A stretch of DNA of 41,513 nucleotides from the NCBI GenBank assembly GCA_043816965.1, contig JBDRHK010000031.1:1-41513 (forward strand), written 5' to 3'. A program made the position numbers. Source of the stretch: Candidatus Iainarchaeum sp. (lineage in GTDB: Archaea; Iainarchaeota; Iainarchaeia; Iainarchaeales; JAFCCJ01). Within the stretch, counting starts at the first letter, position 1. Every line of letters starts with the position of its first letter. Of this stretch, positions 39,001 to 41,513 are shown one piece after another.

Positions 39001-41513
39001 GCATAATAAACACCATGCTGATGAGTGTTGTTGAAAGATTCAAGGAGATAGGTGCTTTGAAAGCAACCGGATGGACCAATGACAGTGTGTTGAAAATGAT
39101 TCTTTATGAATCGATTTTGATTTCTATTATCGGGGGCCTCTTAGGGGCGATAATTGGAGTTTCAATTTCAGTGCTGATTGACATCAGTTTTGGATTAAGG
39201 GTTTCTTTCACATTGGCAGGGGTGCCCTATTTATTGATTGTGATTGCATTCCTTTTCGCGGTTTTTGTCGGGCTTATAGCTGGCCTTTATCCTGCATGGG
39301 TTGCCTCAAATATGGATCCTATTGAGGCGCTGAGGGCAGAATAATTACCTTGACACTTCCAGAATTCCTTTCACAGACCTAAGTTCGGAAACCACTTTCT
39401 CCAGATGCTTGAGATCCTTAATTTTCAGCCCGAACTTGCAGTTTGCATACCCTGTTTTAACAGACTTTGCATTCGCAGAAGTTACAAATATGCCATTTTT
39501 CGAAAAGACAGATAAAAGATCGCTAAGCAGCCCAACCCTCTCCTCCCCCCTCACCCTCAACTCAACAGCATAATCCCCCTTGACCCCGATGCCCCAGTCC
39601 ACCTTAACCCCCTTTTTAATATTCTCCTTTTCCAGCTCCTCACAATCTGCCCTGTGCACAGAGATCTTTCTTTTAGTTGTTATGAATCCAGTTATCTCAT
39701 CTCCGGGCACAGGGCTGCAGCATTTTGCAAGTTTTACCTTGCTGTCATGCTTTTTGATTGTAATGGCCTTAATATGCTTTTCCTTAACCCCCGGTTTCTT
39801 CACACCCAGATGCAGCTTTTGCCTTATCTTGTTTTTTGCCTTTGAGGTCTTCACAAATCCCAACCAGCTTGTCTTTGGCTGCTGTTTGGCGGAGGTAATT
39901 ATTTCAACAAGGTCGCCATTGTCAAGCTCGTGGTTTAATGCAACCGCCTTTCCATTGACCCTTGCCTGCTGGCAATGGTTGCCAATATCGGAATGCACGG
40001 CATAGGCAAAATCCAGTGCAGTTGCGCCTGTTTGGAGCTCAACAACCTCTCCCTTCGGGGTCAGCGTAAATATGTCGCTCTCGAAAAAATCCACCTTAAG
40101 GGAATCTTTTTCATTGTTCTTTGACCCCTTTCGCCATTCCAGTAGCTCCCTTAACCATGTCAGTTTCCGGTCATATTTATCCTCTTTTGCCCTTCCTTTG
40201 TAGAGCCAGTGCCCGGCAGCCCCGAATTCAGATATCTGGTGCATCTCTTTAGTCCGTATCTGGATTTCAATAGGCTTTCTCCCCGGGCCTATGACTGCAG
40301 TATGCAGGGACTGGTAAAGGTTTGACTTGGGCTTTGCTATGTAATCATCAAATTCTCCTGGCAATGGTTTCCAGATGGAATGAATTATGCCCAAAATCTC
40401 GTAGCACTCCTCAACAGAGCCGGTTATCACCCTTACTGCGATAAGGTCATAGATTTCCTCAAATGAACTGTTTTTCCTTTGCATCTTGTTGTAAATGCCA
40501 TAGACATGTTTTGCCCTGCCCTCAATTGTTACGCTTATTTTCTTTTCCTTTAATTTTTTTTCCAAAATGGATTTTACCTTTGTGATCTCCCTCATCCTTT
40601 CCCGTTCTCCGCCCTTTATTTTTTTCTGGAGGCGGTTGAAAACATCAGGTTTCGAATTCTTGAGCCACAAATCCTCAAGTTCTGCCTTAATTCGCTGGAC
40701 CCCAAGCTTATGGGCCAATGGCGCGTAAATCTGGTCTGTTTCTTCAAGAAGTATTTTTTGCGATTCTTTCGGGATAACCTCGAACCATCGCATATTGTGC
40801 ACAATATCTGCCAATTGAATAAGCACCAGCCTGAGGTCTTTGGTCATTGCCAGAATTATCTTTTTTGTCTGGTCTGTTCCCTGTTCCATGTTTCCTGAGA
40901 GGTAACTAAACATAAACTTGTCCAGTTCGGCAACTATGTTTGCAACTTCGCCCCCTACGGATTCGGAGATTTCCTTTTTGCTTGCACCATGACTTAGGAC
41001 ATTATGCACCATGGCGGCGGCAACAGTTGTTGAATCGGCATTCACCGAAACCAAGATTTTCGCAACCTCAAAATTATGCAACATCAGTGGCTTATCCCTG
41101 AGGTCCATAATTCCACTAAGTTTTAGGCATCCGAAATCATAAGCCCTTTCCAACAGGGCCACATCCATCTCGGGACGGGATTTAGCCAGCTCCCCGAGGT
41201 TATTTTTCCTATCCAATCCCTCAACATCTGCGGATGCCATATATATTTCTCAATGCGGCAATTTTTTAGGTCTTTTCATTTCACATTAGATATATATATT
41301 ACTTCGATATTTAGTTCAAACGGTGAATTATTTGGATTTTTTGGTTATTCTGTTTGCGTTAGTCCTTACCGCAGTCCACTACTTCTCAGAAAGCTATTCA
41401 AAGCATGTTGAAAAATGGCACTCTGAAATAATTTCCTTCTCTGCAGGCTTGTTCATCGCGTTCATTTTCCTTTACATCCTCCCTGAGGTTTTCGGCGGTG
41501 TTGAAATTCTGGG

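Follow-up and report, generated by a model that had tools for sequence, protein, structure and literature searches.

Two long RSH proteins with complementary losses of catalytic residues in Iainarchaeota: a putative RelA/SpoT-like division of labour in archaea

The clade A gene and its clade B counterpart

The window, a stretch of 41,513 nucleotides from a Candidatus Iainarchaeum sp. genome (G000), carries on its minus strand a gene for a long RSH protein that belongs to a family referred to here as clade A. A second long RSH gene, of clade B, lies on another contig of the same genome. The features of both are as follows; positions marked aa and His416 count along the window protein, all other residue numbers are those of E. 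coli RelA.

39345..41240, minus strand: clade A long RSH, an ORF of 631 aa with pseudo-HD, SYNTH, TGS, short helical linker, zinc finger (ZFD/RIS) and ACT/RRM
40698..41099, minus strand: pseudo-hydrolase HD_4 domain (aa 48-181; Pfam HD_4, E 5e-30)
40989..41006, minus strand: degenerate HDxxED motif, which reads HNVLSH (aa 79-84)
40191..40520, minus strand: synthetase domain RelA_SpoT (aa 241-350; Pfam PF04607, E 1e-42; 7/7 sites present)
40251..40268, minus strand: catalytic EIQIRT motif (aa 325-330), corresponding to E. coli RelA E335/Q337
39894..40067, minus strand: TGS domain (aa 392-449; Pfam)
39993-39995, minus strand: TGS His416, the equivalent of E. coli RelA H432
39621..39737, minus strand: zinc finger/RIS (approximately aa 502-540), with CC, Arg, His and Cys matching E. 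coli C612, C613, R629, H634 and C638
39348..39578, minus strand: ACT/RRM domain (aa 555-631; Pfam ACT_4, E 8e-19)
G000, C26:9862-11298 (outside the window), minus strand: clade B long RSH of 478 aa with HD, pseudo-SYNTH and TGS, directly downstream of argS

According to their Pfam domains, both clades combine HD and SYNTH in one chain followed by TGS, which is the arrangement of a long RSH. The window protein passes the TIGR00691 model (578 bits, cut-off 499) and reads GRAK, YDL, EFDDY, YQSLHT, EIQIRT and GAAGHWLYK at the synthetase motifs. In its pseudo-HD domain, the guanine-stacking Arg, the Asp of the HD pair, the ED pair and the Lys context of DxxHN are all gone. The RIS match covers aa 449-537 and scores slightly below the cut-off. 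The genome-wide survey's note had described this gene as one that keeps the synthetase motifs and a TGS-RIS-ACT tail and has lost the hydrolase motif, and the intact EIQIRT, the HNVLSH in place of HDxxED and the three C-terminal parts bear this out. Loci found in a scan of genome contigs for relatives comprise a single archaeal one and 16 from bacteria. Rfam models match two tRNAs in the window and nothing else. Among the RNA runs listed, none contains the locus, which carries no information on its expression.

The clade B gene is the sole other strong tblastn match in G000, a genome that is 86% complete, and its product is 32% identical to the window protein. It contains LLHDVLEDT and reads KFYIST where EIQIRT is expected, in line with the earlier description of a second copy that keeps the hydrolase motifs and has lost ExQIRT. 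One detail of that description needs correction: HDxxE[D/E] holds for clade B, but DxxHN is not kept throughout, since the G000 protein itself has DKLDN, as do 2/53 clade B proteins in total. An ACT domain, attached to a helical stub, is found in 42/53 clade B proteins; the G000 protein and ten others end short of it, in one case where the contig itself ends. A 570-aa clade B protein passes TIGR00691, and the shorter one of G000 fails (406 vs 499 bits). An AlphaFold model of the clade B protein of genome G120, based on the alignment of 53, has a pLDDT of 90.9, and its catalytic region fits S. aureus Rel (7oiw) at 1.8-1.9 Å. The compact six-domain tau shape of A. baumannii SpoT (7qpr), which includes ZFD and RRM, is absent from this model, with a full-length rmsd of approximately 26 Å.

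Complementary losses of catalytic and ribosome-sensing residues

The window protein matched 102 of the 151 genomes of the class (68%) and 41 of the 55 good-quality ones. The best 150 of 181 matches yielded 154 ORFs, and removal of seven fragments shorter than 430 aa left 147 proteins from Iainarchaeota genomes, 94 of clade A and 53 of clade B. The assignment follows BLAST score; sorting by motif mislabelled proteins and was rejected. Among the matches listed, 59 genomes hold both types.

All seven synthetase sites (R252, K254, D275, R280, Y310, E335 and Q337) are present in 94/94 clade A proteins, HDxxE[DTE] is present in none of them, and no clade A protein has more than four of the seven hydrolase sites. 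Clade B shows the complementary pattern. HDxxE[D/E] occurs in 53/53 proteins, and the full set of seven hydrolase sites (Arg, His, HD, ED, Lys, Asp, Asn) in 52, the remaining protein having six; the guanine-stacking Arg and the Lys are each invariant (53/53). Neither E335 nor Q337 is found in any of the 53, position 335 is a Lys in 49, and the R252 and R280 columns are scattered. These complementary losses are the same as those seen earlier in an alignment of 30 and 18 loci. Moreover, clade B forms one clade with support 1.0 in a FastTree of 345 rows, and the separation into two clades stands as well. In 142 long bacterial-type relatives that served as a control, the seven hydrolase sites are intact in 132 and the seven synthetase sites in 116; therefore, the split between clades A and B is no alignment effect. 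The between-family identity of the domains tracks function: for HD it is 24% in clade A, 45% in clade B and 49% in the long bacterial-type relatives, and for SYNTH it is 46%, 39% and 55%, respectively. Taken as sequence evidence, the complementary losses in two clades support a putative RelA/SpoT-like division of labour.

The pseudo-synthetase domain of clade B is less decayed than its name implies because several residues of the synthetase pocket are kept (D275 and D309 in 53/53, K262 in 52/53 and Y319 in 47/53). The fixed Asp275 and the Lys at position 335 suggest that this pocket might still be in use, perhaps for nucleotide binding.

The residues that sense the ribosome are distributed in the same manner. 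According to the account given in PMC7058999, H432 in the TGS domain of E. coli RelA recognizes the CCA end of uncharged tRNA, the zinc finger of bacterial enzymes binds the 23S A-site finger, and activation on starved ribosomes requires the TGS His and zinc-finger residues both in E. coli and in B. subtilis. The equivalent of H432 is present in 94/94 clade A and 3/53 clade B proteins. The zinc-finger CC (C612, C613) is found in 91/94 clade A proteins, the other three being without the region, and the Arg (R629) in 88/94; CC is found in 0/53 clade B proteins and the ZFD is deleted in all 53. The regulatory halves thus divide in the same way as the catalytic halves, which strengthens the split. 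Furthermore, a uL11 gene is encoded in G000, and helix 38, the L11 site and the sarcin-ricin loop align in the 23S rRNA of genomes G004 and G037, the two of seven sequences in the right orientation, as features general to any ribosome; the 23S rRNA of G000 is not in the assembly.

Inheritance and origin of the two clades

First, we focus on inheritance within Iainarchaeota. In 50 genomes with both genes in full, the clade A and clade B trees have 32 of 47 splits in common, compared with a mean of 0.24 and a maximum of 3 in 500 shuffles. Seven of nine multi-genome families form one clade in both trees, and 3 of 29 well-supported clade A splits are in conflict with the clade B tree. Gene order is conserved as well. 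Clade B genes lie downstream of argS on the same strand at no fewer than 39 of 53 loci, and clade A genes are divergent from tpiA at 52 of 94 or more. Clade A genes are followed by a gene for a KaiC-like ATPase (at least 43 loci), a MacB-type permease (at least 20, the window copy included) or a CARDB protein (at least 19); all neighbour counts are lower bounds because the flanks are short. Congruent trees and conserved gene neighbourhoods indicate that both genes are old and vertically inherited. In a comparison of G000 with genome G072, dN is well below dS in every domain, including the dead ones, with the short tail of clade B as the exception. For the HD_4 domain of the window gene dN is 0.081 and dS 0.73, and for its synthetase domain 0.022 and 0.46, respectively; hence, purifying selection persists on the degenerate domain.

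These data bear on the trivial explanation that bacterial sequences contaminate the metagenome bins or that the genes have recently become pseudogenes. The genomes are metagenome-assembled, the best matches of clades A and B are bacterial and three genomes carry a split or stop-containing clade A gene. However, the window contig is archaeal and encodes TFE-alpha, aTrm56 and class I LysRS, an 86% identical relative comes from a record named Ca. Iainarchaeum archaeon, and the genes also occur in single-contig genomes. Together with the conserved order, the congruent trees and the low dN relative to dS, this refutes contamination and recent decay, for which a negligible probability remains.

The origin of the pair is less clear-cut. 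By the NCBIfam cut-offs, neither clade is orthologous to RelA or SpoT. Clade A does not reach the RelA model NF008124 (406 bits, cut-off 728) and does not group with RelA in free trees; forcing this grouping is not rejected (p-AU 0.36). The SpoT model NF008303 is likewise not reached (315-392 bits, cut-off 947), and a forced grouping with SpoT has the worst likelihood of the six topologies compared, again without rejection (p-AU 0.20). The closest relatives of clade A outside Iainarchaeota include a Rel family of 620-660 aa with a short linker, and at least five of 81 such short Rel proteins are labelled Ca. Nanoarchaeia, Nanoarchaeota or Woesearchaeota. Under a strict pattern, 66/81 carry both motif sets in one protein, and most of the others differ only at the last residue of HDxxED. 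The linker between the helical domain and the zinc finger comprises 34-44 aa in clade A, 47-59 aa in the short Rel proteins and mostly 107-140 aa in bacteria. EXDD is found in 33/94 clade A and 41/81 short Rel proteins, often as EFDD, which is also the form in the window copy; [RK]xKD is found in 51/53 clade B proteins, as in bacterial Rel. The EXDD/RXKD motif thus appears to tie clade A to the short family and clade B to bacterial Rel.

The genome-wide survey's note had contrasted a duplication within archaea with two transfers and had no bacterial outgroup; with bacterial outgroups added, the trees disagree on this point. We lean slightly towards a duplication within archaea. A mixture-model quick tree of 58 rows joins clades A and B with the unplaced protein P0233 (SH-aLRT 90), and in an AU test based on rough searches the best likelihood falls to clades A and B plus short Rel as one clade (p-AU 0.69). 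The scenario of two transfers, with clade A derived from a short Rel of Nanobdellota, clade B from a bacterial Rel and no duplication at the Iainarchaeota stem, seems to us somewhat less probable in view of these two results. Yet it would readily account for the 345-row FastTree and an 84-row mixture-model quick tree, neither of which joins A and B, as well as for the short linker and frequent EFDD that clade A shares with the short family and the [RK]xKD of clade B; moreover, the AU test rejected 0/6 topologies. Long branches could produce either tree result.

A putative two-enzyme alarmone cycle and genomes that lack clade B

The residue and domain patterns suggest that clade A is probably a ribosome-triggered (p)ppGpp synthetase and clade B a ribosome-independent hydrolase, by analogy with characterized bacterial RSH enzymes. 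Iainarchaeota would then possess a (p)ppGpp cycle run by two enzymes. Clade A would dock on the archaeal ribosome via its zinc finger and ACT/RRM domain, sense uncharged tRNA in the A-site through the TGS His and move pyrophosphate from ATP to GTP or GDP. Clade B, with its zinc finger deleted and its TGS His lost, would work off the ribosome and strip the 3'-pyrophosphate at a presumably Mn-dependent HD site; the ACT domain of most clade B proteins may couple hydrolysis to the supply of amino acids. In either protein the dead domain might be retained for a structural or allosteric role. As targets of the alarmone, we would guess at translation GTPases and purine enzymes.

As in E. coli RelA (5iqr, 5kps), clade A combines the same domain order with a dead HD, an intact SYNTH, H432, C612/C613 and R629. 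The EFDD of E. coli RelA also occurs in the window copy, but EXDD is found in just 33 of the 94 clade A proteins. In addition, clade A is approximately 110 aa shorter, owing to the short linker between the helical domain and the ZFD, and must act on an archaeal ribosome. The RelA-like state of clade A is most likely convergent with E. coli RelA, and our best reading is that the division between A and B evolved separately from that of E. coli. The short bifunctional Rel of Nanobdellota is the nearest archaeal family and resembles clade A in length (620-660 aa), short linker, TGS His and zinc finger; it differs in that both motif sets are mostly found in one protein.

E. coli SpoT is bifunctional. 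The earlier comparison of the pair with RelA/SpoT therefore holds for the predicted division of labour but not for E. coli as the model, and the closer analogue is RelA[hS] plus the hydrolase-only SpoT[Hs] of Moraxellaceae. The SpoT[Hs] of A. baumannii is described as hydrolase-only and ribosome-independent (7qpr, PMC9974481). Both pairs consist of a synthetase-only enzyme with a pseudo-HD and a hydrolase-only enzyme with a pseudo-SYNTH that works off the ribosome, the latter being predicted for clade B. The archaeal pair differs in its host and in that descent from RelA and SpoT is unsupported, both equivalog cut-offs being missed. Furthermore, clade B has lost its zinc finger and some of the helical region, whereas A. 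baumannii SpoT folds all domains compactly, and it keeps the D275-equivalent Asp that is lost in the latter, with the catalytic Glu replaced by Lys in 49/53 proteins (compared with the account in PMC9974481). A deletion of the helical and conserved-cysteine domains with retention of ACT, as in most clade B proteins, is described for SpoT of Haemophilus ducreyi and Actinobacillus pleuropneumoniae (PMC3153485). According to that description, however, these are single species with a bifunctional SpoT[HS], whereas in clade B the deletion is fixed (53/53) and accompanied by a dead synthetase.

That RelA/SpoT genes exist in the phylum is known, and the split has a bacterial precedent; what appears to be new, judging by sequence, is the split in archaea. 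In the passage on these genes, Li et al. (2021) report RelA/SpoT in 69% of Diapherotrites (Iainarchaeota) with a predicted bacterial source; the paralogues are not separated and catalytic residues are not treated there, and their Figure S34 may bear on the split (PMC8407392). For archaea, only small RSH are listed in the part of Atkinson (2011) that concerns them (PMC3153485). The model archaea tested, which lack A- or B-type genes, gave no detectable (p)ppGpp (Braun, 2021, PMC8646023; 2023 review, PMC10249747). The relevant passages of the review state that (p)ppGpp is not described in archaea (PMC10249747), and according to a 2026 paper archaea have no stringent response (PMC13728122). In the titles and abstracts of the literature searched, which lies largely outside subscription journals, the archaeal split is not described.

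If real, an alarmone cycle coupled to the ribosome and shared by an archaeal order would contradict current reviews. Both halves of the putative cycle are retained throughout the order, and only the predicted synthetase has the ribosome-sensing residues fixed; the old question of archaeal (p)ppGpp is now directly testable with two cloned genes. A second, independent split into a RelA and a hydrolase-only SpoT would make the rules drawn from Acinetobacter testable. It also raises the question of which partners would bind ppGpp where transcription and translation are archaeal.

The association of the two clades is one-sided. Clade B occurs in 59 genomes (53 full, six partial) and never without clade A, the partner being a split clade A gene in three of them; clade A occurs without clade B in 38 of the 94 genomes with a full clade A gene (all among the matches listed). 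Hence, the RelA/SpoT-like pairing put forward earlier stands as a predicted division of labour in which the synthetase-only enzyme is not always accompanied by an RSH hydrolase. A clade B profile search of 215 genomes found no clade B in 38/38 genomes of family f8, 6/6 of family f2, G004 or G007. The latter two (99% complete in one contig and 97% in two, respectively) encode an intact-looking clade A protein.

The His that matches E. coli H354 follows this distribution. It is present in 56/56 clade A proteins from genomes with clade B and replaced in 23/38 from genomes without, by Tyr in 21/21 proteins of family f8 and by Asp in 2/2 of family f15. The replacements amount to two lineage events (f8, f15) rather than 23 independent ones. 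The f8 motif is, in addition, shorter by two residues, and the match to H354Y is anchored on WxYK. In E. coli, H354Y lowers synthesis by RelA, and relA+ cells that lose spoT come under selection for relA suppressors, as reported in the part of PMC4154780 on these mutants. The pattern is consistent with a toxic product of clade A. Because there are two events, the f8 motif is shortened and 15 of the 38 genomes without clade B (G004 and G007 among them) encode an intact-looking clade A protein with the His, it explains the orphan synthetases only in part. The frequent loss of clade B as a whole also differs from the situation in relA+ E. coli, where spoT is conditionally essential. Lineages with clade A only might have a damped synthetase or another route of alarmone removal. 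When 60 chosen genomes were searched for HD_4, those with clade A only gave no small hydrolase, the sole match being the dead domain of clade A itself. Ppx/GppA is encoded in 1/151 genomes and Nudix genes in 143/151; being nearly universal, the latter do not discriminate as a substitute hydrolase.

Is clade B then a dedicated partner? It is conceivable, though unlikely, that clade A is a real synthetase whose alarmone is removed for the most part by other enzymes such as Nudix proteins, with clade B dispensable and acting on a wider or different substrate. This would agree with the orphan clade A genes, the complete absence of clade B from f8 and f2, the ubiquity of Nudix genes, of which a ppGpp-degrading representative is mentioned for Thermus (PMC3153485), and the observation that the two genes are never adjacent among the loci read. 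Under this explanation it would be harder to see why clade B never occurs without clade A among the matches listed, why the guanine-stacking Arg is kept in 53/53 proteins within a whole Rel-type HD site, and why His354 of clade A is altered only where clade B is gone.

If clade B is the partner of clade A, as we consider probable, a broader scenario can be drawn, which we regard as evenly poised between right and wrong. A working ribosome-coupled stringent response would have existed since the common ancestor of the order, with a bacterial sensor adapted to archaeal ribosomes and divided, in an event separate from that in Proteobacteria, into a bound maker and a free breaker. Lineages without the breaker would have damped the maker at His354 or would clear the alarmone by another enzyme.

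Finally, the main product or role of clade A might not be (p)ppGpp. Production of pGpp or (pp)pApp, pyrophosphorylation of tRNA or a function as a low-activity factor that parks stalled ribosomes would be compatible with its persistence without a detectable hydrolase and with the remodelled His354 motif of f8, and some small RSH toxins are described, in the sources consulted on this point, to make such products. In f8, moreover, a small HPF-like gene (below the Pfam cut-off) is the divergent neighbour of clade A at 19/20 loci; a tblastn search of G000 with four homologues did not find it. We nevertheless consider this very unlikely. Clade A retains the full long-RSH architecture, the nearest solved structures are all Rel/RelA, and the G-loop residues are as in Rel/RelA in most of the 94 proteins (K315 in 88, N317 in 75, Y319 in 94 and H323 in 91).

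Erosion of hydrolase and synthetase motifs in short relatives

Among the short Nanobdellota-type Rel family (relatives of 620-660 aa of the synthetase-only clade A, mostly bifunctional by motif), the HDxxED motif is eroded in P0154, P0161, P0230, P0266, P0446, P0455 and P0479. An example of the eroded motif is HDxxEF, which is carried by three Woesearchaeota-labelled proteins of the family. From these motif losses, decay of the hydrolase seems to be recurrent beyond Iainarchaeota.

In the short RSH P0233 (636 aa), the HD site, the zinc finger and the TGS His are all intact, but the synthetase is partly eroded, with R280 and N317 (E. 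coli RelA numbering) both replaced by Thr and the motif reading EVQIKT. The placement of P0233 varies by tree, as it groups with clade A, with the hydrolase-only clade B or with both together. P0233 may represent an intermediate towards clade B; a search for close relatives of this protein found none.

Further RSH-type genes in Iainarchaeota genomes

Three further types of RSH-related genes occur in genomes of the phylum:

L237:2815-4197 (genome G013) and L269-L272: RSH of 460 aa in 5 genomes of family f6, genus g6
L238, L239, L240, L241, L242, L243 (genomes G093, G151, G118, G003, G054, G037): stand-alone small HD_4 proteins with HDxxED
L273 (G075:C4) and L274 (G097:C12): extra synthetase-domain genes with ExQIR, frames of 206 aa and 401 aa

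In the 460-aa RSH, the HD site is dead, the synthetase is intact by motif and the chain stops after the TGS domain, which retains its His; zinc finger and ACT are lacking. No hydrolase was found in the five genomes that encode it. The stand-alone HD_4 proteins are about 190 aa long (one has 413 aa) and sporadically distributed, and their hosts are mostly without a long RSH match. The two extra synthetase-domain genes are candidate small alarmone synthetases.

Gene surroundings of clades A and B and tRNAs of the window

The following features lie in the window, beside clade B in the source genome G000 or beside clade A in family f8, which lacks clade B:

window 22480-22554: tRNA, Rfam match
window 25669-25827: tRNA, Rfam match of 159 bases, a length as for an intron-bearing tRNA
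G000:C26:8866-9858: bacterial-type (class I) GAPDH gene, converging on the clade B gene
L247:6191-6496 and L248:6253-6558: 101-aa HPF/RaiA-like protein, weak match (E 0.005, under the cut-off)

At window 39342-39347, the stop codons of a MacB-type permease gene (+) and the RSH gene (-) abut with 0 bases between them. Near clade B in G000 are also alaS, leuS, argS and arginine biosynthesis genes.

The 101-aa protein is the divergent upstream neighbour of clade A in 19 of 20 f8 loci and was looked for in G000 and not found. By hand count, Nudix matches per genome are more numerous in f8 (median 7) than in the B-bearing family f5 (median 3), but high counts are not confined to f8, as the B-bearing family f23 also has 8-13.
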